A stretch of DNA of 64,000 nt from Candidatus Uhrbacteria bacterium RIFCSPLOWO2_01_FULL_47_17 (GTDB taxonomy: Bacteria; Patescibacteriota; Patescibacteriia; UBA9934; GWF2-40-263), in assembly GCA_001791305.1 (NCBI GenBank), contig MGEI01000005.1, positions 44,488 through 108,487 on the forward strand, given 5' to 3'. Below the pieces are notes generated by a model that saw nothing but the letters and a program-made list of their open reading frames with translations, was not told the DNA's origin and did not search any database. Both the position numbers and the translations under genes were made by a program. This document shows positions 1 to 62,218 of the stretch, in pieces. Each line of letters starts with the position of its first letter. Positions within the stretch are counted from its first letter, which is position 1.

Positions 1-3000
1 GAAGGTGACACTCACGTGTTTGCTTCCGAGTCCTTGGACATCACCAGAATCAAATCCATTCACGTTAAATTTGCCATCCGTTTTTTCTGAACAAGCACTT
101 CCAACACAGTTACCAATGGAAGTAATCACTGGCGGTTTGGAACCGTTTGCGGTTGCGCGCTGATCCCACAACCAGTCTGCAGGAGCTGGAGAAAGTTTTT
201 CATATTTTCCGTATGGTTTAGTAGGGTCTGCAGATACAATAACAACATCCTTAAATCCATCGTCAAAATTATGTATTGATAACGATCTCGCAAAAATCTG
301 TTGCAAGCGTGCTCGGGCATCTGCGGGATTAAATCCGCCGATGGTCGTCTTTCCTTCGATTGCTTCTTTATCCGTACAATAAGATCCAAACGTAAAGAAT
401 CCATCTTTCAAAACCAACGTGCTTCGACACACATTCACAACACAATCTGTATCCCCCATACACGCTTGGTTGTTTTTTGGTCCACCGTTACATGTTCCTG
501 CCTCTGCTTTACAGACTCCTTTTCCTATATCGCAATCCGTTTTTTGTTGTGCAGACATACACGTCTTTGTATCCTCTGTTCCTCCAACACACGTTGCTTT
601 CGTATTTTTACATGTTGGTGCAGAACCCTCACCTTTCGTATTACAGTCTGTTGCGCCCGTACTTACCTCACAAGAACAATCTGCGTTTTTACAATATGAG
701 GTTTGTCCCGTAACAGCGAACTGCGGCGGAAGCAGAGAGAATGATCCATATGCACGTGCTTCATTTGGTGTTGTTGGTGGTTTTCCATCGTCACATGTTC
801 CGTCTGCTTTTGGAAATTTATCCCCTCCAGCTCCACACATAAAAATTCGCATTGGATCTGGATCTTTATTTGCATTCTTTGCTCCAAGATCCAATGTTTG
901 TCCATAAATGACAAGTGGAGATGTGACTGTATATCCAAGATGGGAATCAACGGATCCATTAGCTTCTTGAATGGCGTACTTGTTATTTACATTCTGCCAA
1001 ACACGATCTGTCCAAGCTGCGTTATAAACACCACTTTGCAAACTCGTTGCACCAACTTGAGCGATCGTCTGACATGCCGCGTAAGATTTGGCGTTCAAAT
1101 TAAATCCGCGATAACTTTCTGAACCATCAGCACCGCTCCCTTTACTTGCCACACCGGATGGAGATTCTGTTCCCAAATAATTTGTGAGGCTTGCTGCATC
1201 TGTTACACCCTTTACCACACAGTCTGCATAAAACTTCTTTGCCGTCTCCCATTTTGTTGCATCAGAAAAATACAACTTAACGTTCAATGGAGCAGGTCGT
1301 GTGACTGAAGTTTTTGTAATCGCAGTGTAATTCGGCACAGGATTGAGATCTGATGGATCTTCTCCTGGAAATTTACATGCCTGTCCTTCAAGGTCACCGC
1401 TTGTATGGTAAGAAAGTCTTGGAACACAGAAATATGGATAATCATCATCCCCGCCCTGTGTGCAGTAACCACTAGGAGCGACATCACCACAAGGTCCCAT
1501 GAAGGCAACATAGCCTTTCGGACACCAAATGTTTTTATGTGGCTCGTCATCTTGAAAGGCGTCTAATGTTTCTGCATCATTACAATTTCCATCATTGGTT
1601 TCCGCACAAGCATAATCATTCTGTCCGGTTGAGCGAAGGTCATACGCGATTCCTGGTTGTGCACAATAATACGTGCTCTTTGCGATTTGATATCCCGCGC
1701 TTGTTTCTTTTCCATAAAGATCCGTCGCACCCGCAAGCTGATCAACAGGCAACCAAGTGAGACAGGCTTGGTCTTTTGCGGCTGTACTTCCATTCAATTG
1801 GATGGAAGAATCTTTTTCCAAGCAGTATCCCTGCCAACCAAACATGGTGTTTGCCGCAGTCAACAACTGACAGGTGCCTGGATTCTTATTATCTGCTGTT
1901 GCGCAATCCGCATCAGATTTACACACACTTCCATCACTCACTCCCCCTGTACAAATTCCATCAGGAACTTTTCCCGTATCAACAAGGGAAAGATCTGTTG
2001 GATAGTAGCGTGTCTCTCCACCCTTTGCATAAATAGCTTTTGTATAGCTGCATGTGTTTACACAATGATCGGAGATAACCCATTGCTTTGAATCCTCATC
2101 AACATACGGCGTACAAACTTTTGATGCGTCATACCCGGCAACAAACTGCGAAGGAACCGAACGTTGTGTGGCGAGTGATGCATTTGCACCAAGATCTAAG
2201 TAGTCAGCGGCGGCATTCACTTCTGCTTTTTTTGTCGGATCAAACTTAGGATATACCTTCCAAAGTTTCACCACCTTCTGCGGAAACGGCGAATCAATCT
2301 CTGGGTATCCGCGACAGGATTGTGCGTAATCCGCCAAATCTTTTGTGACCGGCTCTGGGAATCCGTCATTGTTTGCATCACGAATACCCGTCACGCAACG
2401 GTCGTTAAAGCAGTTTCCTGACGTCGTGGTTGCAATGGGAATACAGGCGTGTCCGGCATGTTCTTTACAATCGCTTGTTGCAGAACAGCTTCCAATTTTC
2501 GAGACACAAACTCCGCGGACGGTATTACAAAAAGGCGTGTCCATTCCTCCGTTCGCTTCGGTAAGAGCACAATCTGCATCTACCTGACACGAACAGTTCA
2601 AATCTGCATTTTTCTTACAAGGCTCTGATCCGTCAGGTAATGTTGTGATCGATACTGATCCATCAATCGAACAATATCCCTTCTGACAGGTTCCACTCTT
2701 ACAGTCGTTATCTACGGCACACGAACCACTTCCGTCTGTACACTTACCAACAATACAGGCAGAGCCATCTCCAGCCTTCTTTGAATCACAGGATCCTGCA
2801 TTAAAGACCAATCGGTAATCCGGTGAAGCTTCTACACAATCCCCGCCAAAGGCAACACAGCCTGATGAGTCGCTACAAGTTATCTTATTGTTATTTTCAC
2901 ACCACATCTTTGGATTCACATTGAACTGACTGAATTGCTCCACTGGCAACTGGTGTGGGATTTCGTATCCGGAAAAATCCGTTCCCGCCCAGCTGACATC

Positions 3001-6000
3001 ACGGGACGCATACAATTGTTCTGTCATGACAAGCGCCGGGCGTTCTGTCCAAGACTGACATTGTGCTTGGTCTCCTTGAGAACCAACTTGCGTACACAAA
3101 TTTACGGAATCGCAAATTTGAATGTATTTGTTTGCATTTGGATCCCACGTTGTACGCGCACTGTCACACGCAAGCCAAGCAGCGCACGTACGATCACGAT
3201 TCACTTTCAAAACCGTGTTCGCATCATCTGCAACTCGTTGCGTGACTTGCGCACACGCCGTTGCCTTCAGTTCATTTCCTAACTTTGTTTTCAACGTTGG
3301 ACAATCTGAAACCATAAGACAAGAACGCTCGTAGCCTGTCGTGACTGTGGCGCCTGGGACGGTCGTCAGTCCGGGGGACAACAAACTATCATTCAAGGCA
3401 ATCTTGTACTCACAGCGTCGCGCACACAAATCAACCGATGTTGCACTTCCGAGACCAATTTGTTGGGCAGCGTCTGCGCTGACCGTAAACACGCCTTGGT
3501 TTTGCTTACAACTAATTGGATCTACCAAACTATTTTGCGACTTGCTGAGCAGAAGATCTGCGTGAAGCGACAAAACGTAGCTTGCGCTTGAGCTGTATTT
3601 GAGTTGTGAAACGGTTGTGTTGTTGAATAACGCACATCCACCTTTTTGCCCAACTTTTCCTTCACACTTTTGCGAAGCACTCACCGTATTTTCAGACAAC
3701 TTATCATTATTGATCACAAAATACGACTTTCCTTTTCCGTGATTCTCTGAACTTGTATCCGTTGCATCTTGAAATTCTGTACAACGATTTGCTGCAGTTT
3801 CACACGCACCAATCCAACCGTCATATGCAGCGTCTCCATTTTTCCAAATCTGTGCTTGATCGCCAGCAACAAGGTAGGCGTTGTCAGAAGCTGGATCGAA
3901 CTTGCCGTTTGCGTTTTTGTCTGTCCAATAACATGGCTCAGATTTTCCGGAACGGAACCAGCCCTTAAACGTTTTTCCAGCAATGTTTACGGACGTTTTA
4001 TACTCACATGTTTTGTTGAGTGGATCCTTAAAGTAGAAGTTTCCATCTTTTGTAGAAGAAAACTCGTCACAGAACAATGCCTGGTTCTCACACAAAATAT
4101 TTTTGTAATCATCCGGAGTATCCATGACGTACTTCGAATCAAACTTGGTCACCGTCTTCAAGTCTTGAGCGTACGTTGGCGCACCGACTTCTTTACATCC
4201 TTTAAACTCAACAGAACATTGTGCACTGCCGTTATCTACCAAGTAGATGGATTGATCTTGTGGAGTGACGACCGTTTCTGGACCATAGACAATTCCAAAC
4301 TTCGCATCTGAAGGCAATGGATCTTGGAACACTTGTTTTGTTGAAAAGACACAATAATTTTGCCCAGAACTAATCGTACAGTACGTTGTTCCGTTCACGA
4401 TACACGCCACGTTTCCAACCGCTGCTTTTCCATTCGGAAGTGTGCCTACAGGAGTATTCGCAGGAACACCAGCCGCGCCCAAATTCACACAACGCGCGTT
4501 CGCCACCTGACCAGAGGCAGAATCCGAATTAAACGTATTGTAATACGCCGAACATCCAATCACGTTTTCGGAACAAATATTTGAGAACTGATAATAGCTT
4601 CCCTCAACACCTTTACGATCTGTATACGCTTTACATCCCAAATAATATTGCGGAGCGGCCGCACCGTCTGGAGATTGGTCACAAACCGCTGGAGTGACCC
4701 AAGAATCTTTGATGCGTGTAATGTGTTCTTCTGTTTCTGTGAGTCGGATGTTATCAATGAAGAACGTTTTTTGGGATTTTGTGGTGAAGAACAGCGTTGC
4801 GTCTTTGTTGAATGCCGCAAAACTGTTTGTGTCCATTGGACCCACGTTATACACGTCCCATGTGTTTGAAAGCGGCAAGTCTTGTACGAAATAATGCTTC
4901 GCGCCATTATTTGCATCTTGGAATCCGGCAGAAAGAGTTCCCGAGCCCTTTGCCCAGAACTGCATGATGTACACTTTTCCTTTCGCCAAGCTTGACGAAA
5001 GCGTTGCATTTGCCGTTCTCACACCTGTGTCGTCTCCGGACGCAAATACAGACAACGAGTGTCCTCCGGACGCAATGGAATCATTGCTTAATGATGGCGT
5101 GCTTGTGGTGGTTGCTGTGAAGGCCGCATAGGTTCCACCTTCAAATGTTTCATTCAAAATCGTCGCAGCATTACGCGCCGCTCCACCTGTATATTCACGA
5201 CAACCGTTCTCTGCCGCAGAACAAACTTTGGATTCTTTTTGTAATCCAAAGTATCGGCAGAAGCCTTGAGCCGTCCAGAATCCACCGGATGCCTTACAGT
5301 CGAGTGCCGTCGAAGTGTTTTTGCGATAAGCTGTACAAGCAGAATCAACCGTAACGGTTTTTGAGAAGAGGCGATAATGAACATCTCCCGTGCTATCAAA
5401 GAATTCTCGACAATCTGCGTTCGTAAAAATATCTGCGTGTGACTTACAGGTTGGCTCAACCGGAACCGGGTTCACATCCGCACACTTCACCGAACTTTCA
5501 CTTTCTACATTTGGCGTGATACATGGCGCAAGATTCACATTCGACTGTAACAATTGCCATGTCTTCAACTGAAAACCAGATGTATCCGAACCTTCCCACG
5601 TAAAATACGTAGCCGATGTCTTTTCTGGCGTTGCAATTGCCATCTCTCCCGTCAAACACGCACGCAAATTTGTGTAGTGCTCTTGTGTTTCCCCACCGTT
5701 TGTTCCGAGTTTTGTGAATCCATCACATCCAACCGCGTTCTTCGAACACACACCGGCTTTATCCGCAATAAAATACACGGGGAATTTAGCGGGTTCATAG
5801 CGCGTGCCTTCTTGTCGATACGCATCATATCCAACACAAACATTCGGACACGCGTCGAGCGCAGATGCGATCGCCGGAACCGCTGGACCGGATTCTTTTG
5901 GCGTATACAAATTACATCCAACATCTTGTGCGGAACAAACTTGCGTATACGCAGCACATTCTTTTGGATCTGATGCGAGGCCCTTGCATCCGAGGTACGC

Positions 6001-8703
6001 CGGCGGAAGTTTCAGATAAGCTTTTTGCGGGGTTGTTACGTTATAACCATCCCCAAACGTCGACGCGACTTCGCCGGATTCAAGTTGAACCGCATCGAAA
6101 CGAACATTCGGACTGTTTGTGCTTCCGATTAAACGAACCCTAACCAAATTCACGTTCTGTGGAGCTGTAAATGTGCAGGTGAAACGTTTCCAATTGCCTA
6201 TCGTGGCATTCGCGGAAATGGTATATCCTGAGACGAATTGTTGACCAACTGTATCTTTTATACAGTCTCCACCCGAAGAAAGTCCTGTAATGTTTATCGC
6301 AGCACCTGTTATATCGAAAGGCTGAAGAACAACCTGAAAATCAGATCCTATATTATCAGTCGCTGTTGTATATGTACTAAATGTAAAAAAACTCTTTGGT
6401 GTGATTAAAATAGATTGATTGATTTCTCCATCTAATTTTGCACTTTTTGATCCATCCACAGCTGTAACAGAATCTACATTCGGATTTGAAACTGCTAAAT
6501 GGGACCATAAATCTGGTTTTCCATTTTGATCTTCATCTTTTTCAAAACTTCCGTTTTGTACCAAGTTCAACGCGAGTTTACTGTCTTTCACATTCAACTC
6601 CGTACAACCCGCCTGCTCTTGATCACATTTCTTTGCGCTGTGCGTCAAATACAAACGGTCTTGGTAAGCATAATCCGTTTGTTTTGTTTTTTGAATGTTT
6701 GGGACAAAGGGTGTGGATCCTGCATATTTCATGGAAGAATTTTGTACTCCAACATCAAACGGAATCGTTCCGTTGTACCATTGAAACACGCCTTTTGCGT
6801 CCGCGGATTTTTGTGTTTTGCTCCAAGAACATCCTGCATTTTGCTTTGTGCAATTTGCGTTATCAACTGTATTCAACAAAAATGAATTTGCTTTTCCTGT
6901 TTTTGTATTTTGCAACATGAGACAGGTTGCATATTGCGCAGGACATTCGTCACCCTTTACACGCCAAATATTTTTTTCTTCCACACAGTAACCGAATCCT
7001 TGCGTACATTTTCCTGTGTTGTCTTCTCCAATACACGTTGGCGTATCCGCACAGACGTTTTGTCGTCCCGGCGCCTGCGCACTCACGCGAATTTCTCCAT
7101 TCACCGATGCACGACATTGCGTTTCTGGTGCTTTCAGTACCCAGTTTGGATCAATCAAGTGGTACCACAGTGATTTCGGATCATAAAACCCAGCCACAAT
7201 ATCCGACAAAGACGTTGGATTGCTGAGCGAATTTTTATCCGCCGCAAGCTCCCAACCAATCGAAATAATGCGCGCTTTGCGAAGCTTCACCAAGTTTCCA
7301 TAACAAAAACCGTAGGTATAACAAAGACGATCCTGGTTTGCCGCAATATTTTTTGAAGAAATGAGAGGCCAATCGCCTTTCAGCACTTTTTGGTCAATCG
7401 CTTCTTGCACCGTAAGCGCTGCCGCACTGCCTCCGCGACTAATCGCAGACACAACACTCGCATCGATCACACAGGAATTTAATCCTCTGTTTCCCGTTCC
7501 TTCCGGTAAACATTGGGTAAACTCTCCCAATAAATCGAATTGTAAGTTTGCAACGGGTGTTGCGGTAAAAATTCCACCTAAGTCCGCTTTATTTGCGTCC
7601 GTGTTTCCACCCGATCCAACCGCGAGCTCAGCATTAAACGGATCGAAGTTGTCAGGTTTTGGAGAAAACAACCCTTTATAGACGCGATTGAACAGTTGGG
7701 ATGTGAGGGTGTTCGTAAACGTAGAAACAGACATGTTCAAAAGCCCGTACCAAACATCCGGGTTTGCAATAATATCTGCTGTTTTCACTTTATTTTCATC
7801 ATTGTCTGCCGCTTTCAACTTTTTATCAAAATCTTTTGCAACGATGGCGGCCGGCGTTTTTGTTTCTCCGGTCACAAGATCTTTCACATCTGTAAAACCA
7901 CCAATCGATTTACTTGCATTTTGCTCCACAACTTTTTGATCAGCTATTTTTGCGGACTTCTCATAGGTATGGCTCAGAAACCCAATGGACGCACCGAGTT
8001 GGTTGCTTCCTGGACGCAAGCCTTCCGAAAGTTTGTTGAACAGAAATTTTTCCGCCGCGTCTTTGTCATTCGTAAGAAGTGCTTTTGTATCCGAGACAAT
8101 TTGACCCCACGCCCCATTCACTTGATCAAAATCACAACGTGGTTTTGTTGGAGTGTAGTTTTGTTTAATACTCAACTGAAGATTTAAACGAATCATTGGA
8201 TTTGGCGGAACACACAAATCTAACCCAAAACTGGATTTTGAAATATCGCTCAAATTCGCATACGCCTGTCCTCCAATATCTTTTCCGAAACTTTTCCATG
8301 CTTCTGTTGCGCTCTTTCTATAAAACATGGATCCTTCCCCGGGACCGCCGTTTGCCACGTACACAGCCGCTTCATAGGCAATTCGGTTACTTGCATACGA
8401 CACAAAATCCACAAGCGCTTTTATCGCAACCATTTTGAGTGCTGGGGTGATTAACCCATCCCACATCGCACTAATAGCGCCAGAAATACCACCCCCCGGA
8501 CAAACAGAGGGAGTTGCACCTGTGGTTAAACAAGCTGTTTTCGAGGCTTCAGCGGCAACCTTCGTTGGTGCCGTTACAGGGTTGTCCGCAGCAAATACGG
8601 GTGACGGCGCTGACAAAGCAAGTCCGCTCGAAACAATCCCGATCAAAAAAACAAAGACAAGCCCACGGCCGATCCATTGTCGTTTTTTCTTGAAAGGTTG
8701 CAA
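1..8703 (-). CDS. Giant secreted cysteine-rich surface protein (>2,900 aa); partial, C-terminus lies beyond the window start
   Basis: Continuous minus-strand reading frame from ATG at 8703-8701 down to position 1 with no stop. It is absent from the ORF track only because no stop codon lies in the window. Spot translations at 8703-8500, 4561-4620 and 480-700 give clean protein sequence in a single frame. The N-terminus has a basic stretch followed by a hydrophobic segment, consistent with a signal peptide, and Cys-rich motifs recur throughout. Confidence 0.75.
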   Translation of the reverse strand, partial: MQPFKKKRQWIGRGLVFVFLIGIVSSGLALSAPSPVFAADNPVTAPTKVAAEASKTACLTTGATPSVCPGGGISGAISAMWDGLITPALKMVAIKALVDFVSYASNRIAYEAAVYVANGGPGEGSMFYRKSATEAWKSFGKDIGGQAYANLSDISKSSFGLDLCVPPNPMIRLNLQLSIKQNYTPTKPRCDFDQVNGAWGQIVSDTKALLTNDKDAAEKFLFNKLSEGLRPGSNQLGASIGFLSHTYEKSAKIADQKVVEQNASKSIGGFTDVKDLVTGETKTPAAIVAKDFDKKLKAADNDENKVKTADIIANPDVWYGLLNMSVSTFTNTLTSQLFNRVYKGLFSPKPDNFDPFNAELAVGSGGNTDANKADLGGIFTATPVANLQFDLLGEFTQCLPEGTGNRGLNSCVIDASVVSAISRGGSAAALTVQEAIDQKVLKGDWPLISSKNIAANQDRLCYTYGFCYGNLVKLRKARIISIGWELAADKNSLSNPTSLSDIVAGFYDPKSLWYHLIDPNWVLKAPETQCRASVNGEIRVSAQAPGRQNVCADTPTCIGEDNTGKCTQGFGYCVEEKNIWRVKGDECPAQYATCLMLQNTKTGKANSFLLNTVDNANCTKQNAGCSWSKTQKSADAKGVFQWYNGTIPFDVGVQNSSMKYAGSTPFVPNIQKTKQTDYAYQDRLYLTHSAKKCDQEQAGCTELNVKDSKLALNLVQNGSFEKDEDQNGKPDLWSHLAVSNPNVDSVTAVDGSKSAKLDGEINQSILITPKSFFTFSTYTTATDNIGSDFQVVLQPFDITGAAINITGLSSGGDCIKDTVGQQFVSGYTISANATIGNWKRFTCTFTAPQNVNLVRVRLIGSTNSPNVRFDAVQLESGEVASTFGDGYNVTTPQKAYLKLPPAYLGCKGLASDPKECAAYTQVCSAQDVGCNLYTPKESGPAVPAIASALDACPNVCVGYDAYRQEGTRYEPAKFPVYFIADKAGVCSKNAVGCDGFTKLGTNGGETQEHYTNLRACLTGEMAIATPEKTSATYFTWEGSDTSGFQLKTWQLLQSNVNLAPCITPNVESESSVKCADVNPVPVEPTCKSHADIFTNADCREFFDSTGDVHYRLFSKTVTVDSACTAYRKNTSTALDCKASGGFWTAQGFCRYFGLQKESKVCSAAENGCREYTGGAARNAATILNETFEGGTYAAFTATTTSTPSLSNDSIASGGHSLSVFASGDDTGVRTANATLSSSLAKGKVYIMQFWAKGSGTLSAGFQDANNGAKHYFVQDLPLSNTWDVYNVGPMDTNSFAAFNKDATLFFTTKSQKTFFIDNIRLTETEEHITRIKDSWVTPAVCDQSPDGAAAPQYYLGCKAYTDRKGVEGSYYQFSNICSENVIGCSAYYNTFNSDSASGQVANARCVNLGAAGVPANTPVGTLPNGKAAVGNVACIVNGTTYCTISSGQNYCVFSTKQVFQDPLPSDAKFGIVYGPETVVTPQDQSIYLVDNGSAQCSVEFKGCKEVGAPTYAQDLKTVTKFDSKYVMDTPDDYKNILCENQALFCDEFSSTKDGNFYFKDPLNKTCEYKTSVNIAGKTFKGWFRSGKSEPCYWTDKNANGKFDPASDNAYLVAGDQAQIWKNGDAAYDGWIGACETAANRCTEFQDATDTSSENHGKGKSYFVINNDKLSENTVSASQKCEGKVGQKGGCALFNNTTVSQLKYSSSASYVLSLHADLLLSKSQNSLVDPISCKQNQGVFTVSADAAQQIGLGSATSVDLCARRCEYKIALNDSLLSPGLTTVPGATVTTGYERSCLMVSDCPTLKTKLGNELKATACAQVTQRVADDANTVLKVNRDRTCAAWLACDSARTTWDPNANKYIQICDSVNLCTQVGSQGDQAQCQSWTERPALVMTEQLYASRDVSWAGTDFSGYEIPHQLPVEQFSQFNVNPKMWCENNNKITCSDSSGCVAFGGDCVEASPDYRLVFNAGSCDSKKAGDGSACIVGKCTDGSGSCAVDNDCKSGTCQKGYCSIDGSVSITTLPDGSEPCKKNADLNCSCQVDADCALTEANGGMDTPFCNTVRGVCVSKIGSCSATSDCKEHAGHACIPIATTTSGNCFNDRCVTGIRDANNDGFPEPVTKDLADYAQSCRGYPEIDSPFPQKVVKLWKVYPKFDPTKKAEVNAAADYLDLGANASLATQRSVPSQFVAGYDASKVCTPYVDEDSKQWVISDHCVNTCSYTKAIYAKGGETRYYPTDLSLVDTGKVPDGICTGGVSDGSVCKSDADCATADNKNPGTCQLLTAANTMFGWQGYCLEKDSSIQLNGSTAAKDQACLTWLPVDQLAGATDLYGKETSAGYQIAKSTYYCAQPGIAYDLRSTGQNDYACAETNDGNCNDAETLDAFQDDEPHKNIWCPKGYVAFMGPCGDVAPSGYCTQGGDDDYPYFCVPRLSYHTSGDLEGQACKFPGEDPSDLNPVPNYTAITKTSVTRPAPLNVKLYFSDATKWETAKKFYADCVVKGVTDAASLTNYLGTESPSGVASKGSGADGSESYRGFNLNAKSYAACQTIAQVGATSLQSGVYNAAWTDRVWQNVNNKYAIQEANGSVDSHLGYTVTSPLVIYGQTLDLGAKNANKDPDPMRIFMCGAGGDKFPKADGTCDDGKPPTTPNEARAYGSFSLLPPQFAVTGQTSYCKNADCSCEVSTGATDCNTKGEGSAPTCKNTKATCVGGTEDTKTCMSAQQKTDCDIGKGVCKAEAGTCNGGPKNNQACMGDTDCVVNVCRSTLVLKDGFFTFGSYCTDKEAIEGKTTIGGFNPADARARLQQIFARSLSIHNFDDGFKDVVIVSADPTKPYGKYEKLSPAPADWLWDQRATANGSKPPVITSIGNCVGSACSEKTDGKFNVNGFDSGDVQGLGSKHVSVTF

Positions 8704-8712
8704 CATACGTTT

Positions 8713-9438
8713 CTATGGCTTGGAAGTTTCCGTTGTTGCGCTTGCGGAACCAGACGCACCACCGGTTGTTAACGAATCAAATTTTCCTTCGGCAGAGGCT
8801 TGACCGATCGCTTGTTCAAAGAGTTTCTGCAAGTCTTCATCGGAAATTTTATCCACCTCTTCTTTTTTCACGCCAGATTGAATGAGGGCGGCACGAATTT
8901 CTGTAGCAGTTGCAGCTTTAAAAAACTTTTGGACATCTTCTTTATTTTGAAATTTGAGTTGACCGGATTGTAAAATCGCTTCATTTCCAGGTGTTGAACC
9001 CAAGAAATCTTGGGGAGATGTTGAATCAACGTTTGCCGTCTCTCCCAAAGAGACACAATTCTTTCCAACAGGACAATTTGGATCTGTTCCGGCAAAGACT
9101 TCTGTTTTGTCATCAGTCGCGTCAGAATCTGAGTCTCTCAGATACGGACTTGTTTTATACACGTACAACTCATCATAATCTGAGAGTCCGTCTATGTCTG
9201 TATCTTTCTTTTTTTGTTCTTCAATTTCTTTTGAATCTTTTGCGTTTGGGTTCACTACATCCTCACCCGTGTAATACTTTGCGAATTGTTGTTGAATAGG
9301 GCGGTAAAGATGAGAACCAAATGATCGAAACCCAAAAATAATTCCCCCAAACCCCAAAAAAACTAAAAGAGCAAAAGCAATTTTTTGCTCCGCTTGTAAT
9401 GCCGACGGTGGACGATTTTGAATTCTCCGTGTGGCCAT
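8713..9438 (-). CDS. Hypothetical membrane-anchored acidic protein
   Basis: ORF 8713..9549 trimmed to the first plausible ATG at 9438. The more 5' in-frame residues are a translation of a G-rich palindrome. One N-terminal TM helix (IAFALLVFLGFGGIIFGF) is followed by an acidic low-complexity region. Its TAG stop at 8712-8710 is 6 nt from, and in frame with, the giant ORF's ATG. Confidence 0.55.
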   Translation of the reverse strand: MATRRIQNRPPSALQAEQKIAFALLVFLGFGGIIFGFRSFGSHLYRPIQQQFAKYYTGEDVVNPNAKDSKEIEEQKKKDTDIDGLSDYDELYVYKTSPYLRDSDSDATDDKTEVFAGTDPNCPVGKNCVSLGETANVDSTSPQDFLGSTPGNEAILQSGQLKFQNKEDVQKFFKAATATEIRAALIQSGVKKEEVDKISDEDLQKLFEQAIGQASAEGKFDSLTTGGASGSASATTETSKP

Positions 9439-9510
9439 AAGTTGTGAGGATATTATAGCAGGAGACGCGTGTCGCTGGTAGCGAGTCGTTGGGGACAAAC
9501 ACGCGTTCGT

Positions 9511-9540
9511 AGGGGAGGGTCGCGACCCTCCCCTACGACA
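9511..9540. repeat. G-rich perfect palindrome (REP-like hairpin), copy 1
   Basis: cgtaggggagggtcgcgaccctcccctacg, a perfect 14-bp stem. A second related copy lies at 10363..10393. Confidence 0.6.
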
Positions 9541-9542: not shown

Positions 9543-9570
9543 AAAACAAAACAGGAAATTCATTCCTGTT
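9543..9570 (-). terminator. Intrinsic terminator downstream of rsmA
   Basis: Hairpin aacagga/tcctgtt followed by a T-tract on the minus strand, immediately after the rsmA stop. Confidence 0.55.
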
Positions 9571-10359
9571 TTATGTGTTCATCATTTGTTCCAACTTCGT
9601 CCATTGTTCAATGGTGAGATTCTCTGCACGCACTCGGGGATCAAGCTCAAGCGCAATGAAATACGATTTCACATCATCACTCGTAGCTTCAGGCTTTCGT
9701 ACGCGTAAATAAGGCAAAAGATTATGATGTAACTGCTTCCTACGCGACACAAACCCCATTTTTGCAAGCGCAATAATGCGCTCGGCAGATGGATCAGAAT
9801 TCTGTTTCAAGTCGAACTGCACAACAGCAGAATCCACCTTTGGAATAGGCCGAAACGAACCCGCCTTCACATTTACCACCCTTGAACAATCCGCATAAAG
9901 TCGGCAGACAACCGACAACAGACTCATCTGCGGAGGTTTCGCCACGATCCGATCCGCCACCTCACGCTGAACCATAAGAATCATCCGGGTTGGTCTAGGT
10001 GATTGCGTTAGAAATTTCTCAATAATAGGTGAAGTGATGTTGTATGGGATATTCGCGATCAGTTTGAAATTGCGATCCTCGACGGGCAGTTTCTCGAGAC
10101 GAAGAATATCTCCTTCAATAAGCTCAATCTTGTCACCAAAGTGCTTTACGAGCGGTTCGATCAAGTCATGATCAAGCTCGACGGCAACGACGCGTGCTTT
10201 CGAGCCAACAAGTGCCTGCGTGAGAAGTCCTGTTCCGGGACCAATTTCGAGGACACTCTCCCCTTTCTTCAAATCTGCGGCAAACAAAATCTTATCGACC
10301 ACAGATTGGTCGATCAAAAAATTCTGTCCGTAGGATTTTTTTGCGCGTGGCAATCCCAT
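9571..10359 (-). CDS. rsmA: 16S rRNA (adenine1518/1519-N6)-dimethyltransferase RsmA/KsgA
   Basis: SYGQNFL motif and SAM-methyltransferase fold motifs (LEIGPGTGLLT). The start was moved to the ATG at 10359 (MGLPRAKKSYGQNFL) because the track's longer start overlaps the palindrome. Confidence 0.9.
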   Translation of the reverse strand: MGLPRAKKSYGQNFLIDQSVVDKILFAADLKKGESVLEIGPGTGLLTQALVGSKARVVAVELDHDLIEPLVKHFGDKIELIEGDILRLEKLPVEDRNFKLIANIPYNITSPIIEKFLTQSPRPTRMILMVQREVADRIVAKPPQMSLLSVVCRLYADCSRVVNVKAGSFRPIPKVDSAVVQFDLKQNSDPSAERIIALAKMGFVSRRKQLHHNLLPYLRVRKPEATSDDVKSYFIALELDPRVRAENLTIEQWTKLEQMMNT

Positions 10360-22865: not shown

Positions 22866-23798
22866 TTACTCAACTCGGCAGAGTGTTTTTAGGGCTTGTA
22901 CATCATCCGCTGTCAAAACCGCATTCACACCGTTGTTTAAGCGATACATAATCGCTTTTGGATTTTCAAGATGGTCAAGCCGAAGCGCGTGACCCATTTC
23001 ATGCATAAGCACACGGATAAGTTTCGCTTGGTCATCAAACTGATAGATATTGATGCGCGTACCCTCAATGGAACGCACATACTCCCCTTCCTCAAACTCC
23101 CCACCACGCGAAGCTCCGATGGTGTTATATTGATCCGCAACCAAATTCAAGGAACGCGCAAGGCGATTGATCACTTCTACAAGCGCATTTAATTCGTCGA
23201 CGCGCGCATTAATTTTTCCTTGCAACGCATTCAGTTCATCTCGCATTTGATCCAACGCAGCCTTTTCTCTTGCGAGTCGATCGACGGTTTCTTGTGAAGC
23301 TCCACCGCGATTGTTCCAGTAAGTCACCTCTTTGTTGTAAGTCGAGAGCTTTGCATCATAGGCATCTGATTGTGTTTGATAACTCGCTTTGAGCGCATTG
23401 ATCGTCTTTTTAAGCGCTTCATATTTTACCTTCAGCGCATCATACGAGGCTTGATCATCACGGATCGAAAATCCCAACTTCTGCAATTTCTGCGTTGCTG
23501 CTTGCCGGTCATCATAAATCAAATTGATCTTGAGTGCGCCGTCAGGATCATAAACAAACAACTCTTTGTCGATTGGCTTCTCCCAAACAGATTCCGCTTT
23601 TTGAAGATCTTTCAGAAATGTTTCTTTCGAAATCCCAAATCGCGTATCAAACTCGCCGATCGAATACGCGATCGGTTGTGCACATGGGTTCAAACGCGCG
23701 GACAGAAGCGACCAGGTGCGCAAAAGCGGATCGCGAAAATAAAAGGCGATGCCGGCAAGAAAAAGAAGAAAAAAAATGTTCGCAATGAATCTGCGCAT
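22866..23798 (-). CDS. Membrane-anchored metzincin-type zinc metalloprotease
   Basis: HEMGHALRLDH (HExxHxxxxxH) plus a Met-turn (AIMY). N-terminal TM helix and a central coiled-coil/Q-rich region. The first ATG is at 23798. Confidence 0.65.
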   Translation of the reverse strand: MRRFIANIFFLLFLAGIAFYFRDPLLRTWSLLSARLNPCAQPIAYSIGEFDTRFGISKETFLKDLQKAESVWEKPIDKELFVYDPDGALKINLIYDDRQAATQKLQKLGFSIRDDQASYDALKVKYEALKKTINALKASYQTQSDAYDAKLSTYNKEVTYWNNRGGASQETVDRLAREKAALDQMRDELNALQGKINARVDELNALVEVINRLARSLNLVADQYNTIGASRGGEFEEGEYVRSIEGTRINIYQFDDQAKLIRVLMHEMGHALRLDHLENPKAIMYRLNNGVNAVLTADDVQALKTLCRVE

Positions 23799-23863
23799 AC
23801 ACAGATCATAACATTTGAGAGACAAATAAAAAAACCTCACGGAAAAAACCAGTGAGGTAAGAC

Positions 23864-29968: not shown

Positions 29969-32833
29969 TTGTGCGAAGATACGCATACGTTCCTTACAAC
30001 CCACGGAGGTCCCGTGAACACTCGTTTTTTTGTGCTTCTTCTTTCTTTCCTCGCCATTGGATGCGAAGAAATCTCTCCCTTCATTTCGGATGCTCTTCGT
30101 GGCAAACGTCTTGATGTTGATGGTGATGGAATTCCCCGTCCAGACGATTGCGATGATCGCAATCTGAAGGTTGGAATCCGAATCTGGTATCAAGATGTGG
30201 ATCAAGATGGATTTGGCGCAGGCGCAAAAATCATCGTCTGCGACATGCCAATTGGTGCAACCACAACACATACGGATTGCGACGACACACGTGCGAATGT
30301 GTATCCGAGCGCATCAGAACTTTGTGATCACCTCGACAACGACTGCAATACACAAACAGACGAGACGTTCACGGATCTTGACGCAAGCTGTGGTGTTGGT
30401 GCTTGTACAGGCGGAAAGAAAATCTGTGCGTCTGATCAGGTGAGCACAACCTGCTCTTCAACCACGAACGCGAGTTCGGAAAGCTGCAACTTGATCGACG
30501 ACGACTGTAATGGGCAGACGGACGAAGGAACGCAAACTGCGTACTATCAAGATGCAGACAAAGACGGATTCGGAAATATCGCACTGAAACATCTGCGGTG
30601 TCTCCCCCTTCCGGGAGAAACCACAAACGCAACAGATTGCGATGACGCGCACGAATCGAGTTATCCAAACGCTCCCGAGTTCTGTGATGGACTCGACAAC
30701 GATTGCAATGGGCAGACAGATGAATCGACAGCGGTTGATGCAAAAACGTTGTTTGCCGATGTTGATCAAGATACATATGGCAACGTCTTGGTGACAAAAA
30801 AATCGTGTGTCACAGAAAGCGGTTGGTCGCTCACGAGCGATGATTGCAAGGATCTTGAGAAAGCGATTCATCCGAACGCGCTTGAGATTTGTAACATGAT
30901 CGATGACGACTGCGATGGACAAACGGACGAAGGGGTCATCAAGATCTATTTTGCAGATGCAGATAAAGATTCCTACGGAGATTTATCGAAAGACGTAACG
31001 GGTTGCACGATTCCGGAAGGGTTTGTGACAAACAGTGCGGACTGTAACGACAAGCAAAAATCGGTTCACCCAAACGCAATCGAACTTTGCGACAACAACA
31101 TCGACGAAAACTGCGACGGTGTCACAGACAACGCAAAAGAAGCATCTCTGTGGTATCTCGATTCCGACAAAGACAGCTACGGCAAAAGTACTGTCTCAAT
31201 GTACGCATGTGCAACTCCAACCGGATACGTTTCGGACAAAACGGATTGCAACGATGCAGACAAAACGATTTATCCGAACGCAATTGAGATCTGCAAAGAC
31301 TCGATTGACAACGACTGCAATGGAATCACGGACACAGACACGAAAATCGTGACGTGGTACCTGGATTCCGACAAAGACACCTTTGGTGATGCAACAAAAT
31401 CCAAAGAGGATTGCTTGCAGCCAGTTGGCTACGTCAAAAACTCTGCAGACTGTTCTGACGCGAATGCGTCCATTCATCCAGAAGCACTCGAAGTTTGCAA
31501 CAATGGAACGGACGATAATTGCGATGGAAGTGTGAATCAATGTTTCCTAAACGGAGTCATCAAGATCGGAAGTGTAAATGTGATTCAGATCACAGGACCA
31601 GAAAGTCAAAACTTTGCGGCGGCTGTTTCTACATGCGATCTAAACGATGATGGTTCTCCAGATATCGTAATCGGCTCGCCTGCATGGAATGCCAATCAAG
31701 GAAAAGTATCCCTCTACCTCGCTCCATTTAAAAGTGGCATGAATCCGACCCAAGAAATTCTTGGTCCAACGAACGGTCTATTTGGAACGAGTCTTGCGTG
31801 TACAGGGTCAAAAAATGGCCCAATGCTCGCGGTAGGTTCCCCTGGACTTGCAGCAAATGGAAACAGCGCCGGAGCCCTTTACGTCTTTATGACATCCGTC
31901 CTGAAAAGCACATCCGTAAACGATGCGAATGCGGTATGGATCGGTACGGCACAAAACATGGAGGTTGGTGTTTCGTGTCTTGCTATTCCCGACCAAGACA
32001 AAGATTCACTCGACGATTTCTTTGTCGGAGCGGATGGATACAATGGAGGCGCGGGAGCGTTTGCCGGAGCAGGATTTATGGTGAGTTCCGCGACACTCGG
32101 AACAGTTCTCATACAAAACGCCCTTGCAAGTTTTATCAACAAAACAAAAGACGAACTCGCAGGAACATCTTTGGCTGTCGGATTTGTAAACCAGGACACA
32201 AAACTCGATTTTCTCCTCGGAGCCATTTCGAGCGATGTCGCGGCAACGGATGCGGGAGCAGTCTATACACACCTCGGACCCATGTCCGGATCGAACTTCA
32301 CAACAGAAAACAAAGCGATCTATGGCATCTCACCGTTTGATACACTCGGGCAAAGTCTTGCGAGTTCATTCGATCTCACAGGTGATTTGCTCGATGACGT
32401 GCTCATTGGTTCTCCCGGAAACGGTAATGCGCAAAATCCAGGATCTGTGCAAATAGCACGATTTGCAAACGCAACATTTCTTGTAACAACTCTTGAATCC
32501 ACATTCGGAGGAGATCGCTTGGGATATTCTGTCTCGAGTGGAAACGTGAATGCAGATCCGGTCGGCGATATTCTGGTTTCATCCCCAGGCGCCGATGATG
32601 CGGGATTCAATTTCGGAAGTGTCTTCCTTCAGTACGGCCCCATTCTCAAAGATGGGGATATTCGCAAAACAGCACATGCGCGTATTGACGGCGAGGTGGC
32701 AAGTGGCCAACTTGGTTGGCTCACAAAAATCGCTCCCGATCTGAATGGCGACAATATTCCCGATCTCATTCTTGTGACAAAATCCACCAAACCCTTGCGG
32801 AAACTCTACATCCTGCCAGGTCTCGGTCTCTAA
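29969..32833 (+). CDS. Secreted/lipoprotein-like surface protein with about 9 MopE-type Cys-rich putative metal-binding repeats and a C-terminal FG-GAP beta-propeller
   Basis: Repeats match the pattern YxDxDxDGFG...CDD...P.A.E.CDG.DNDCNG.TDE. The C-terminal region has about 7 FG-GAP-like blades (for example DIVIGSPAWNANQGKVSLY). N-terminal signal peptide ending in LAIGC. Confidence 0.75.
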   Translation: MCEDTHTFLTTHGGPVNTRFFVLLLSFLAIGCEEISPFISDALRGKRLDVDGDGIPRPDDCDDRNLKVGIRIWYQDVDQDGFGAGAKIIVCDMPIGATTTHTDCDDTRANVYPSASELCDHLDNDCNTQTDETFTDLDASCGVGACTGGKKICASDQVSTTCSSTTNASSESCNLIDDDCNGQTDEGTQTAYYQDADKDGFGNIALKHLRCLPLPGETTNATDCDDAHESSYPNAPEFCDGLDNDCNGQTDESTAVDAKTLFADVDQDTYGNVLVTKKSCVTESGWSLTSDDCKDLEKAIHPNALEICNMIDDDCDGQTDEGVIKIYFADADKDSYGDLSKDVTGCTIPEGFVTNSADCNDKQKSVHPNAIELCDNNIDENCDGVTDNAKEASLWYLDSDKDSYGKSTVSMYACATPTGYVSDKTDCNDADKTIYPNAIEICKDSIDNDCNGITDTDTKIVTWYLDSDKDTFGDATKSKEDCLQPVGYVKNSADCSDANASIHPEALEVCNNGTDDNCDGSVNQCFLNGVIKIGSVNVIQITGPESQNFAAAVSTCDLNDDGSPDIVIGSPAWNANQGKVSLYLAPFKSGMNPTQEILGPTNGLFGTSLACTGSKNGPMLAVGSPGLAANGNSAGALYVFMTSVLKSTSVNDANAVWIGTAQNMEVGVSCLAIPDQDKDSLDDFFVGADGYNGGAGAFAGAGFMVSSATLGTVLIQNALASFINKTKDELAGTSLAVGFVNQDTKLDFLLGAISSDVAATDAGAVYTHLGPMSGSNFTTENKAIYGISPFDTLGQSLASSFDLTGDLLDDVLIGSPGNGNAQNPGSVQIARFANATFLVTTLESTFGGDRLGYSVSSGNVNADPVGDILVSSPGADDAGFNFGSVFLQYGPILKDGDIRKTAHARIDGEVASGQLGWLTKIAPDLNGDNIPDLILVTKSTKPLRKLYILPGLGL

Positions 32834-38761: not shown

Positions 38762-38838
38762 GGGGATGTAGCTCAGCTGGTTAGAGCTCAAAGCTTATAC
38801 CTTTGCGGTCGATGGTTCGAGTCCATCCATCCCCACCA
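38762..38838 (+). tRNA. tRNA-Ile (anticodon TAT/UAU), CCA encoded
   Basis: Acceptor GGGGATG/CATCCCC, D-arm AGCTCAGCTGGTTAGAGCT, anticodon stem CAAAG/CTTTG with loop CTTATAC, T-loop TTCGAGT. The TAT anticodon would read AUA. Confidence 0.75.
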
Positions 38839-45737: not shown

Positions 45738-47201
45738 TTAATATTTTCCAGGCTCGTAAAGCGTTCCATCAATCTCTATCGTTTTGCTTGGAACACAGTC
45801 ATCTTTTTGATTATAAAAACCAGTTGAATATTTACACATTCCAGTTAAAGAAGATACGATTGGGGAACCAGCCGGGAAACCAAGTCCGCACGGATTTTCA
45901 TGACAAATAGATTCCAATCCAAAATTTCCTTTGTTAATTCCCGCTTGTGTATTCTGAATATCCTCGAGCGGCTGTCCACCCGGCTTCTCATCATTTGTCG
46001 CAAGTTGCGTATCATAATCAGAACAGGATTTTACGGCCGCACAATTGAGCGTAATCACCGCACAGGTTCCTCCTGTCACAACCGTCCCTGCCCCAGCCGC
46101 GACACCTGTAATCATATCTGAATCTTCCGTGTATCCACAGCGAATAATCGCTGCATCTTTTATTCCGGATGCTGCGGGTGATAATTGTGAACAAGCGGAT
46201 GAAGATGGCTTGATTCCCAGTGTATTCCCTTTCGTCAGTGCTTTACATTCCACACACTTTGCTGTTGCTCCACTTCCAAGACATCCTTTTCCTGCAGGAC
46301 AGCTTTTAAAATCACAAGAGATTCCAGCAGCGACGGCCGGGGCTTTGTCATCATAAGCGATCACATTCGATGATTTTCCACAGTCTTCTCCTGTCGTAAA
46401 ATCTGTCTCCATTTTAAAGAGAAGTTTTCCGTCTTTATCTTTTTTTAATTTATATTCTTCACAAGAAGCAGCTCCCTCCGGGAGGCCAATAGGTTTGACC
46501 ATGGGAAACTTTGGAACTTGTAGTTTGATCAGGTATGGATTAACCGTTTGTGCAATAAGCGTCACACACAACAGCAAGACAAAACCAGTGATACCATTTT
46601 TGATGCGATCTTTTCCTTTTGAGACGCCGTCCTTTGTACTTGCTCCAATGGTGTACTGAAGCCCACCGATCATCACCATGATGATGGAAATAATGATTCC
46701 CGTGTTAATGATGAACGAAAAGATTGCATTAATATATTCTCCAATATCTCCGGTAAGCGTAAGTGGCTTTGAAGGATCTGTTGGATTTGGAATGGAAACG
46801 TTTAATGCCACTTTCACCGCATTCTTTGGATCTGGAAAACAGTATCCCTGACCCTTCACACAGTCCCAAGCCTGTTTACTATCAAGAACACCACTTTGTT
46901 TTTCACATTGTTCTTTTGTATAACAATACGGACTTCTATCTGGTGCTTGCGCTGCGGTAAAGGCACACGCGGCCATGGCAAACCCCTTTGATTTACACAT
47001 GGATACACAGGCGTCACGCGTTGTTTTTGTGTCTTTATCCGGGTATCGGGTTGCTCCCGCACTTGTTGCACAATAACAGTCGCACGTGGTTGGCGTTGGC
47101 ACCGCAGCAAAACTTACAGGGACAAAAAGAAAAAAAACAATCGCAACGCATGCGAGGGTGCATGCTGTGTGATGAACAAAAATTCGCAATGCTTGCATCA
47201 T
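45738..47201 (-). CDS. Cys-rich secreted/membrane protein with an internal double hydrophobic hairpin
   Basis: Signal peptide, more than 30 Cys, and two central hydrophobic segments (INAIFSFIINTGIIISIIMVMIGG and GITGFVLLLCVTLIAQTV). Confidence 0.55.
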   Translation of the reverse strand: MMQALRIFVHHTACTLACVAIVFFLFVPVSFAAVPTPTTCDCYCATSAGATRYPDKDTKTTRDACVSMCKSKGFAMAACAFTAAQAPDRSPYCYTKEQCEKQSGVLDSKQAWDCVKGQGYCFPDPKNAVKVALNVSIPNPTDPSKPLTLTGDIGEYINAIFSFIINTGIIISIIMVMIGGLQYTIGASTKDGVSKGKDRIKNGITGFVLLLCVTLIAQTVNPYLIKLQVPKFPMVKPIGLPEGAASCEEYKLKKDKDGKLLFKMETDFTTGEDCGKSSNVIAYDDKAPAVAAGISCDFKSCPAGKGCLGSGATAKCVECKALTKGNTLGIKPSSSACSQLSPAASGIKDAAIIRCGYTEDSDMITGVAAGAGTVVTGGTCAVITLNCAAVKSCSDYDTQLATNDEKPGGQPLEDIQNTQAGINKGNFGLESICHENPCGLGFPAGSPIVSSLTGMCKYSTGFYNQKDDCVPSKTIEIDGTLYEPGKY

Positions 47202-47207: not shown

Positions 47208-47951
47208 TTAATTCTTTTGGTCATTCATGGACCAAATGACATTTTCAAGAATATTTTGAGGGATAGATCCTGGAATCCGATTTCCATTAATAAAAAACGT
47301 TGGAGTTCCACGCACACCAGCTGCAAGACCATCCGCATAATCTTGTTCAACCTGTTTTGTGTACGTCCCAGCAATAAGACAAGCATGAAAATGCGTTGTG
47401 TCTAAATTCAGCTGATTGGCGAACTGTTCAAACGATGCCTCTTCAAGCGTATCTTGATTTTGATACAGTTTGTCATGATATTCCCAAAATTTTCCTTGTG
47501 CGTTTGCGCAGGCAGATGCTTCTGAAGCTTTTTGTGCGAGTGGATGCAATTCAAGGAGTGGAAAATCTCTGTAGATGTAGGCAAATTGGTTTGGATATTT
47601 TATGGCAAGCGCACGCATGACAAAACTGGACGTACGAGAAAACGGACAACCAAAATCTGCAAACTCGACGATGGTGACAGGAGCATTGCGAGATCCAAGC
47701 ATGGGGCGATCATTCACAACAACGTCCACGGTTCCGTCTTTCACAGGTTCAGAGACGATTTTTGAAAGAGACGAAACCGTTTGGGAAAAATTTAAATCGG
47801 AAAGATTTAACGTTCCGTTTCGAATTTGAGTGGTGTAAAAAACAACGCGCCAAACAAATGCACCGAGCAACAAAAGAATCACGAGAGTCACAATCGTGCC
47901 GACCCAACCGCGCTTGCGATGAATTTGAGCCTCCTCATTCATGTAAGACAT
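47208..47951 (-). CDS. DsbA-like thioredoxin-fold thiol:disulfide oxidoreductase, membrane anchored, CPFS active site
   Basis: N-terminal TM helix and a thioredoxin-fold motif FGCPFS (a CxxS variant of CxxC). DsbA-family layout. Confidence 0.7.
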   Translation of the reverse strand: MSYMNEEAQIHRKRGWVGTIVTLVILLLLGAFVWRVVFYTTQIRNGTLNLSDLNFSQTVSSLSKIVSEPVKDGTVDVVVNDRPMLGSRNAPVTIVEFADFGCPFSRTSSFVMRALAIKYPNQFAYIYRDFPLLELHPLAQKASEASACANAQGKFWEYHDKLYQNQDTLEEASFEQFANQLNLDTTHFHACLIAGTYTKQVEQDYADGLAAGVRGTPTFFINGNRIPGSIPQNILENVIWSMNDQKN

Positions 47952-56426: not shown

Positions 56427-56494
56427 TCCATGCCTGGTTTTTTTATTGTCGTGAAACAAAAAATCCCGCGCGAGGCGAGATTCTTTGTGTTCCA

Positions 56495-62032: not shown

Positions 62033-62037
62033 TTTTT

Positions 62038-62150
62038 CCCTCTCACTTAGCTTGCGCAGCGAATGAGAGACTCGCTCTTTGACACATTCTCGACCTGCCC
62101 GCAGCTGCTTCACAGCTGCGGGACTCGACACCGCCCGTCATTTGCGAATG
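62038..62150 (+). repeat. Inter-ORF structured repeat, copy A (hairpin cccgcagctg-CTTCA-cagctgcggg at 62097-62121)
   Basis: Shares ccctctcacttagc, gaatgagagactcgctctttga.aca, the hairpin and gactcgac with copy C, and the core with copy B. Confidence 0.7.
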
Positions 62151-62218
62151 TCGCACATGGTGGTCGGTCTGAGGAAGCACACACGCTCGGCGAATTCGCG
62201 GAGCAAGAGGAAATTGAA

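Follow-up and report, generated by a model that had tools for sequence, protein, structure and literature searches.

The stretch analysed here, 64,000 nucleotides of contig MGEI01000005.1 (positions 44,488 to 108,487) from Candidatus Uhrbacteria bacterium RIFCSPLOWO2_01_FULL_47_17 and hereafter called the window, carries at its left end two adjacent minus-strand genes that encode a giant, cysteine-rich exported protein and a small acidic membrane protein, referred to as the partner. The giant gene (1..8706, −) exits the window at its left edge, leaving residues 1–2902 of 3108 inside it. The partner gene (8713..9438, −, including its TAG stop codon at 8713–8715) lies directly upstream, after rsmA, and encodes a 241-residue, single-pass (N-in) acidic membrane protein. 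The remaining window is an ordinary chromosome of the Candidate Phyla Radiation (CPR), with rsmA, NAD-epimerase, prfB, groEL, yidC, nusA, aminoacyl-tRNA synthetase, uvrA and RNase J genes, an RNase P RNA and five tRNAs. The two genes may together specify a disulfide-stapled, glycan-binding protein that is displayed at the cell surface.

Frame 0 of the minus strand is free of stop codons from window base 8712 to base 1, and the first ATG of the giant open reading frame (ORF) is located at position 8706, giving 2,902 codons inside the window. The encoded sequence is identical to OGL69978.1 (P0448; A3C09_01005), a 3,108-residue protein of Candidatus Uhrbacteria bacterium RIFCSPHIGHO2_02_FULL_47_44 that is annotated as "hypothetical protein" and carries the UniRef name "CBM-cenC domain-containing protein". 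The full-length ORF was found in six independent assemblies with 1–3 amino-acid substitutions only. An initial annotation of this DNA had reported an ORF of more than 2,900 residues and had named frame interruptions as the sign of a pseudogene or of several separate genes. The ORF proved to be one open frame, no interruption was found in the window or in the six assemblies, and the giant gene is thus a single intact gene. The initial annotation had also pointed out that the partner TAG stands 6 nt before the giant ATG and in frame with it. The arrangement is as described (spacer AAACGT, 8707..8712, −) and recurs in the three closest relatives, but it has no evident meaning: the tight spacing is common in the family while the in-frame relation is not. 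A small ORF ends ~1–30 nt before the giant start in ~70 of 77 loci with enough upstream sequence, and the relative frames 0/1/2 of the two ORFs are distributed 30/25/22 over the 77 loci. Because these frames are essentially random, the in-frame TAG is regarded as incidental and not as a readthrough signal. If the locus were an artefact (a pseudogene, several genes run together, or the two ORFs joined by readthrough of the TAG), the in-frame stop codon and its recurrence in the closest relatives would be accounted for. Such an origin is extremely improbable, as the frame is uninterrupted over 2,902 codons here and 3,108 in the six assemblies, homologues align from end to end, the giant ORF starts with a conserved signal peptide of its own and prfB (release factor 2) is present, consistent with ordinary stop-codon use. 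The readthrough or fusion variant was rejected on the random frame relation.

The boundaries of the transcription unit can be tentatively placed. Directly after the rsmA stop codon, a consensus scan and inspection of the sequence located a putative terminator, a hairpin followed by a T-run (9546..9574, −). This AT-rich element is the first of two consecutive hairpins between rsmA and the partner gene; the second, at 9509–9536 (−), is G+C-rich (GTAGGGGAGGGTCGCGACCCTCCCCTAC). An extended −10-like box, TGcTATAAT (9452..9460, −), is positioned 13 nt 5' of the partner ATG and represents a candidate promoter recognised by inspection of the sequence. It would leave a very short leader, and a simple −35/−10 consensus scan did not call it. 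The post-rsmA hairpin and the TGcTATAAT box would place the start of a transcription unit downstream of rsmA, which suggests that the partner and the giant gene form their own two-gene transcript.

The giant protein begins with a Sec signal peptide (residues 1–39; 8590..8706, −) of sequence MLQPFKKKRQWIGRGLVFVFLIGIVSSGLALSAPSPVFA followed by AD, with cleavage predicted between VFA and AD. All 23 homologues inspected have an AxA-type cleavage site, in support of the signal peptide that had been proposed earlier. The protein was scanned for a second hydrophobic segment, an LPXTG motif and a C-terminal anchor, and none was found; the chain terminates in a conserved NPWxxxDGxIxxxP strand and is acidic overall, with an isoelectric point (pI) of 5.2. 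Since it displays no anchor of its own, the giant protein would be held at the surface by the partner.

The cysteine content of the exported chain is its most pervasive feature. In the window the giant ORF contains 128 cysteines (4.41%), against 0.63% in 24 other window genes, and the exported proteins of the window are 6–9 times richer in cysteine than the cytoplasmic ones. Over the 59 homologues compared, which share 25–60% identity, about half of the 138 cysteines of the full protein are invariant and most of the others are at least 90% conserved. The homologues possess 102–170 cysteines each and the count is even in 53 of the 59, for which our own binomial estimate, made without a tool, is ~1e-10. 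Cysteines are lost as neighbouring pairs with no discordance, as observed for 59–69 (24 of 24 cases), 1761–1765, 1936–1944, 1950–1957, 1973–1984, 2867–2872 and 3051–3064. The loops of the giant protein include 20 C-x6-C and 11 C-x5-C spacings, and a scan of the protein for CxxC motifs returned none. In an 11-instance alignment of the C-x6-C hairpins the two cysteines alone are invariant. Export, even counts, paired loss and the absence of CxxC together argue for structural disulfides rather than metal sites, and binding of metal clusters by these residues was judged unlikely for the last three of these reasons. As far as can be judged from the sequences, the giant protein is almost certainly disulfide-stabilised and would contain ~69 structural disulfides. 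The earlier description of a chain rich in cysteine pairs and stabilised by disulfides is thereby borne out.

The N-terminal domain (residues ~85–640; 6787..8454, −), delimited through the conservation profile and an AlphaFold2 (AF2) model, is predicted to be largely helical between residues 85 and 390 and continues into the most conserved stretch of the giant protein, residues ~400–600, which contains NLVKLRKARIIPIGWELAA and LIDPNWVLK. Lys-474, Arg-476, Arg-479, Glu-486 and Asp-519 are invariant in this domain. The AF2 model, computed from 36 sequences, has a mean predicted local distance difference test score (pLDDT) of 52 and is confident only for residues 390–530 (pLDDT 80–94). Foldseek searches with this model against PDB and BFVD returned nothing below E 0.4 and, because the model is poor, the missing match is not evidence of a new fold. 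The domain had no sequence match in Pfam, PDB sequences or PHROGs, and it is always N-terminal in proteins of ~3,000 residues; shorter matches look like fragments.

Two β-jelly rolls resembling carbohydrate-binding modules (CBMs) follow, both hypervariable. Jelly roll 1 comprises residues ~705–895 (6022..6594, −) and scores only 14–16 bits against Pfam CBM_4_9, with a further weak match to CBM_4_9_1; its assignment is supported by a PDB profile match to CBM16 (2zew, E 0.02), by a paralogous relationship with jelly roll 2 (hhalign, probability 79%) and by AF2 and Foldseek. Jelly roll 2, of CBM_4_9/CBM22 type, comprises residues ~1181–1325 (4732..5166, −), and its residues 1181–1283 match Pfam CBM_4_9 (PF02018) above the cut-off of 25.9 bits, scoring 26.9 when the whole protein is searched and 30.5 when the segment is searched alone. 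The AF2 model of residues 690–1889 is mostly β with a mean pLDDT of 71 and contains both jelly rolls, which reach ~80–90. With this model, Foldseek retrieved 4xuo (CBM22 of Xyn10C; template-modelling (TM) score 0.72, E 2.7e-7), 2zex (CBM16, TM 0.72) and 3p6b (CBM4). The lectin- or jelly-roll-like stretches noticed at the outset thus correspond to two modules, one above the Pfam cut-off and both recovered by Foldseek, and the structure prediction that had been recommended for the Cys-rich modules shows both of them. The likeness to CBM families 4/9/22/16 (4xuo, 2zew) lies in the β-jelly-roll fold, the profile of the second module and TM scores of ~0.7. In contrast to these families, the identity is only 13–19%, no recognisable glycoside hydrolase is attached and each jelly roll is preceded by a C-x6-C hairpin, within a duplicated Cys-rich super-unit.

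This super-unit emerges from a self-comparison of the profile by hhalign, in which three collinear matches (693–801/1161–1266, 866–937/1313–1391 and 959–998/1469–1508) indicate a duplicated arrangement of C-x6-C hairpin, jelly roll and Cys-rich module. A conserved, β-rich, Cys-rich module occupies residues 896–1170 (5197..6021, −), with C-x6-C hairpins at 924–931, 987–994 and 1162–1169. The second conserved Cys-rich region, recognised by hhalign and AF2, spans residues 1331–1900 (3007..4716, −), its first part being paralogous to residues 866–1000. Downstream, residues 1936–2104 (2395..2901, −) form a run of small Cys-knot modules with motifs such as CxxDxDC, recognised through low alignment occupancy and co-lost cysteine pairs. 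A conserved region with a GWxGYCLExD...ACLTWLPVDQ motif and no known-family match extends over residues 2131–2450 (1357..2316, −). The following hypervariable C-terminal third, residues 2451–2840 (187..1356, −), shows 30–40% identity to close relatives and an occupancy of 0.4–0.8, and includes an optional Cys-knot insert at 2672–2777; both Cys-knot runs (1936–2104 and 2672–2777) differ in number among homologues. Only the start of the conserved C-terminal domain (residues 2841–3108; 1..186, −), defined from the alignment, lies in the window, and its full sequence was taken from P0001/L001; the hidden Markov model profile of this domain detected no relatives among PDB sequences. The domain annotation advised earlier, run on the whole protein and on segments, gave CBM-type matches only. 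The ~90% of the giant protein outside the jelly rolls had no match in Pfam (whole protein and ten segments, E up to 1), NCBIfam, PHROGs or, with the whole-family profile, PDB sequences.

These modules bear on the possibility that the giant protein is an extracellular enzyme, in which the N-terminal domain or another region would be a novel glycan or cell-wall hydrolase, targeted by the CBMs and employed in nutrient scavenging or in breaching a host wall. CBM_4_9 and CBM22 modules, which are detected here, are normally companions of glycoside hydrolases, and the best-conserved and best-modelled core, residues 390–530, holds the invariant Glu-486 and Asp-519, with Asp-554 and Glu-577 downstream, together with conserved tryptophans. 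An enzymatic role is nevertheless rather improbable: Pfam, NCBIfam, PHROGs, PDB profile searches and Foldseek revealed no catalytic family, the N-domain alignment shows no invariant triad of His/Ser/Cys type, and ~3,000 residues and 69 disulfides would be left unexplained.

The regions of the giant protein differ strongly in evolutionary tempo, as judged from amino-acid identities between the window genome and the nearest genome (L002). The two genomes share 96% identity in GroEL, 94% in PrfB, 87% in RsmA and 80% in the partner, against only 58% in the giant protein. Within the latter, the N-terminal domain and residues 900–1000 and 1500–1600 still display 80–90% identity, residues 2000–2100 ~30% and residues 2400–2840 ~30–40%. 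Both jelly rolls fall to ~45–50%, and jelly roll 1 is 45–52% identical to that of relatives whose GroEL is 96% identical. Read from these sequences, a conserved disulfide-stapled scaffold would display fast-evolving modules, as would be expected of exposed parts that bind a ligand or receptor.

The partner displays an equally characteristic organisation. Its N-terminal tail is basic and cytoplasmic (MATRRIQNRPP...) and precedes a transmembrane helix at residues ~20–42 (9313..9381, −), which is conserved in the alignment and was located by Kyte-Doolittle windows above 1.6. The ectodomain is acidic (pI 4.4), so that the small membrane-anchored acidic protein announced upstream of the giant ORF is indeed a 241-residue protein with one hydrophobic segment. 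Two predicted Ca2+-binding motifs resembling thrombospondin type 3 (TSP3) repeats and EF-hands, DTDIDGLSDYDE...YKTSPY...DSDSDATDDKTE (9100..9204, −), are found in the ectodomain. Their consensus sequences are DTDxDGLxDYDE and DSDSDGxDDKTE, followed by a conserved CPxGKxC pair, and Asp-79, Asp-81, Asp-83, Asp-87, Glu-90, Asp-102, Asp-104, Asp-106, Asp-110, Glu-113, Cys-122 and Cys-128 are invariant in 30 homologues. The C-terminal region is conserved and helical. The partner scores 20.9 bits against Pfam TSP3_bac (PF18884), below the cut-off of 25, and several homologues have a precomputed PF18884 match; among PDB sequences, the Ca-binding motif of Staphylococcus Bap comes closest (7c7r, E 0.03). 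The DxDxDGxxDxxE motifs of the partner resemble those of thrombospondin-type proteins, bacterial TSP3 and Bap, the DTDGDGxxDxDE..YKTSP context matching Bap. The pairing of type-3 Ca motifs with disulfide-rich modules in a single system also recalls thrombospondin. In contrast to those proteins, there are only two motifs, these are carried by a membrane protein separate from the giant chain, and the matches are marginal. The partner family has 457 homologues, all of ~220–300 residues and confined to the Uhrbacteria lineage. A descriptive comparison of pairwise distances over 43 loci gave the closest correlation of the partner with giant residues 41–390 (r 0.86; 0.67 after controlling for RsmA) and the weakest with the C-terminal domain (0.27), hinting weakly at a contact between the partner and the N-terminal region of the giant protein.

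A search of 5.8 billion proteins identified 67 relatives of the giant protein, 59 of which are 2,900–3,400 residues long and can be aligned with it from end to end; the others look partial. The source name of all 67 is "hypothetical protein", and the named sources are mostly Uhrbacteria or Patescibacteria. The N-terminal 672 residues matched 1,172 proteins among 1.84 billion cluster representatives, 719 of them below 1e-30, and a scan of one genome per species confirmed 457 giant-gene loci. The literature search found no description of the family, which is already deposited as hypothetical proteins and is uncharacterised. The window copy shares with the family the end-to-end homology, the N-terminal domain, the conserved cysteine positions and the upstream partner after rsmA. 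Many records with the rsmA-partner-giant arrangement (loci L006, L011, L012, L017 and others) are titled "uncultured Gammaproteobacteria bacterium" (metagenome-assembled genomes, TPA_asm), and one relative is labelled Eisenbacteria and another Methylomirabilis. The gene content of the oddly titled records is Uhrbacteria-like, and these titles therefore look like placeholder or mis-binned taxonomy.

The order rsmA, a gene of 215–330 codons and the giant gene was present in all five contexts looked up, and also at the edge of the family, in a homologue of 29% identity from a bin labelled Magasanikbacteria. The giant gene has conserved synteny beside groEL, prfB and rsmA, envelope-glycan genes (Wzy_C, NAD-epimerase, GT2, PMT_2) are interleaved nearby, and its sole conserved neighbour partner is the small upstream gene. 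No relatives were found on IMG/VR viral contigs, and a phage origin was rejected on this result and on the chromosomal synteny. The same lineage-wide synteny with housekeeping genes would suit an abundant core envelope scaffold or S-layer-like coat, in which the jelly rolls would attach the protein to surface polysaccharide made by the cell itself and the partner, with its Ca motifs, would fasten it to the membrane. The nearby envelope-glycan genes, the fixed architecture and length, the acidic pI and the occurrence of each of the 80 fetched loci on a different contig are all consistent with such a coat. With 4.4% cysteine and 3,108 residues, however, the giant protein is much larger and much richer in cysteine than typical S-layer proteins, and Pfam scans detected neither SLH nor any other established domain for S-layer anchoring. 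The jelly rolls are moreover the parts that evolve fastest, which a changing external ligand explains more easily, although a variable self-glycan is possible. A coat function is, on balance, unlikely.

The preferred reading, that the two-gene unit encodes a disulfide-stapled, glycan-binding surface protein tethered by a co-transcribed Ca-motif partner, is given a probability of about 0.5. The giant protein would be exported via Sec and oxidatively folded outside the cell, where structural disulfides between its cysteines would staple a long, multi-module and mostly β ectoprotein. The partner would hold the helical N-terminal region at the membrane, and the conserved scaffold would project the fast-evolving jelly rolls and the hypervariable C-terminal third outward. 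These variable parts may bind glycans on another cell, presumed to be a host, and the giant protein would act as a lineage-wide receptor-binding adhesin or fibre, not as an enzyme or toxin. What the sequences show is the export, the missing anchor, the cysteine pattern, the jelly rolls, the conservation of the partner and the variability; the tethering, the glycan binding and the role in host contact are inferred.

Several points weigh against this interpretation. Host-specific adhesins usually vary in copy and repeat number, and the fixed architecture and housekeeping synteny of the giant gene would be no less fitting for a core component of the envelope. The best-conserved part of the giant protein (residues 400–600, with Glu-486, Asp-519, Lys-474, Arg-476 and Arg-479) could be catalytic, and glycoside hydrolases are the proteins that usually carry CBM4/9/22 modules. 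The argument from variability is built on identities and not on the ratio of nonsynonymous to synonymous substitutions (dN/dS), the correlation between partner and giant distances is descriptive and carries no significance test, and of the two AF2 models one is of moderate quality (pLDDT 71) and the other poor (pLDDT 52).

By analogy of function, giant fibrillar adhesins bearing lectin modules come closest among known kinds of protein. Like RTX adhesins such as MpIBP, FrhA and the Aeromonas adhesin (PMC12077191), the giant protein is very large and extracellular, presents carbohydrate-binding modules on a scaffold and belongs to a system with Ca motifs. In contrast to RTX adhesins, it has a Sec signal in a presumed monoderm instead of a C-terminal type I secretion signal, and ~69 disulfides instead of Ca-rigidified Ig repeats. 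Its architecture is fixed, its synteny is with housekeeping genes and the Ca motifs reside on a separate membrane partner; Pfam and NCBIfam found neither RTX nonapeptide nor BIg repeats in it. Sortase-anchored adhesins differ in possessing the LPXTG motif and C-terminal hydrophobic segment that the giant protein lacks. Foldseek also aligned the model with Vip3 and Cry insecticidal toxins, at E 3e-7 to 1e-5. Vip3 likewise joins two CBM-like domains to a helical N-terminal region. In contrast, the similarity to Vip3 and Cry is confined to the jelly rolls (TM ~0.1 overall, root-mean-square deviation > 25 Å), and Foldseek found no solved structure, not even Vip3, that resembles the N-domain model. 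The matches to Vip3, Cry and Elapor1 were accordingly set aside as similarity of the jelly rolls or Cys modules only (TM ~0.1). A role in host adhesion has been proposed for secreted proteins of cultivated Patescibacteria that are highly expressed and carry galactose-binding-like, PKD, thioredoxin-like and T4SS-pilin domains (Kuroda et al. 2024, PMC10936435). These belong to the same superphylum and likewise comprise secreted jelly rolls, thioredoxin-like proteins and T4SS pilins. They differ from the giant protein in being much smaller and from other classes, with no homology shown, and their roles are likewise inferred.

Three further genes of the window encode exported or membrane proteins that the initial annotation had combined with the giant protein. 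A 954-residue secreted protein (29969..32833, +) contains six Cu-binding_MopE motifs and an FG-GAP repeat by Pfam, with 3.9% cysteine, and a Cys-rich (6%) membrane protein of ~475 residues (45738..47201, −) has a T4SS_pilin match; both had been correctly described. Adjacent to the latter lies the gene for a membrane-anchored, DsbA-like protein of 247 residues (47208..47951, −; DSBA/Thioredoxin_4, PF13462 86 bits, PF01323 68 bits). Here the proposed enzyme has the fold and the N-terminal anchor but lacks the catalytic CxxC, as the active site FADFGCPFS reads CPFS in this position. Among its 120 closest homologues, which are from Uhrbacteria, CxxS is present in 115, CP[YF]S in 111 and CPFC in one. 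In other Uhrbacteria the gene is always followed at once by a pilin-like gene and preceded by secG. With its CPFS sequence and this conserved pilin-like neighbour of its own, the DsbA-like protein does not qualify as a canonical oxidase that would form the disulfides of the giant protein. With the pilin-like gene it looks like a conserved pair of a monothiol thioredoxin-fold protein and a pilin-like protein, and a function in mixed-disulfide retention or as an isomerase is conceivable. MdbA-like oxidoreductases are known to be enriched in CPR genomes; CxxC is found in 92% of them, often with VKOR as a neighbour (10.1101/335083). The window protein resembles these MdbA/DsbA-type oxidoreductases of CPR and Actinobacteria (10.1101/335083) in its fold and N-terminal membrane anchor and differs from them in missing the resolving cysteine.

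The proposal that the giant, MopE-repeat, pilin-like and DsbA-like proteins constitute one disulfide-dependent surface apparatus was not supported, no linkage having been detected. All four have export signals or membrane segments, three are Cys-rich (3.9–6.0%), the spacing of ~40 kb between the giant and DsbA-like genes recurs in a related genome and the CPR enrichment in MdbA-like oxidoreductases would be in keeping with such an apparatus. It is nonetheless very unlikely: the MopE-repeat, pilin-like and DsbA-like genes are 21–47 kb from the giant gene with unrelated housekeeping genes between them (aminoacyl-tRNA synthetase genes, NusA, YidC, UvrA and others), only the small upstream gene consistently adjoins the giant gene, the DsbA-like protein has the CPFS site and a pilin-like neighbour of its own, and neither VKOR nor DsbB turned up among the larger window ORFs.

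Elsewhere in the window, a 324-residue ORF (22866–23840, −) with a C-terminal matrixin-type (Peptidase_M10) zinc-protease match may encode a secreted protease. A tRNA-Ile with anticodon UAU (38762–38838, +) would read AUA directly and not via a lysidine-modified CAU tRNA. A class A bacterial RNase P RNA is found at 56491–56904 (−; 154 bits, full-length model). The segment ~61800–64000 has a G+C content of 53–63%, against ~45% elsewhere, with ORFs that overlap on both strands and have no Pfam match, and includes a near-repeat coding "MRDSLF(D/E)T..CPQLLHSCGTR" at ~62063 and ~63560; it may be a foreign or mobile segment.

Uhrbacteria, like most CPR bacteria, are uncultivated. The giant gene takes up ~1% of a roughly 1-Mb genome, is intact across hundreds of species, changes fastest in its lectin-like modules and has a dedicated partner, which makes the pair a candidate for cell-cell contact or envelope machinery. 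With ~69 conserved pairs, the giant protein would be an extreme bacterial case of disulfide-dependent extracellular architecture, and the lack of CxxC in the sole DsbA-like protein seen nearby raises the question of how its disulfides form. More speculatively, and with low confidence, the pair could be the principal, hitherto unrecognised host-contact or envelope structure of an entire CPR lineage. The giant protein would then be a new class of giant disulfide-crosslinked ectoprotein, built largely of folds without known relatives (the N-terminal domain, the C-x6-C hairpin modules and the C-terminal domain), with a Ca2+-dependent membrane receptor as its tether and variable lectin modules setting host range. 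The giant protein provides an antigen or marker for imaging, modules for glycan-binding screens and a sequence feature to correlate with putative hosts, and an attached lifestyle is plausible for Candidatus Uhrbacteria.

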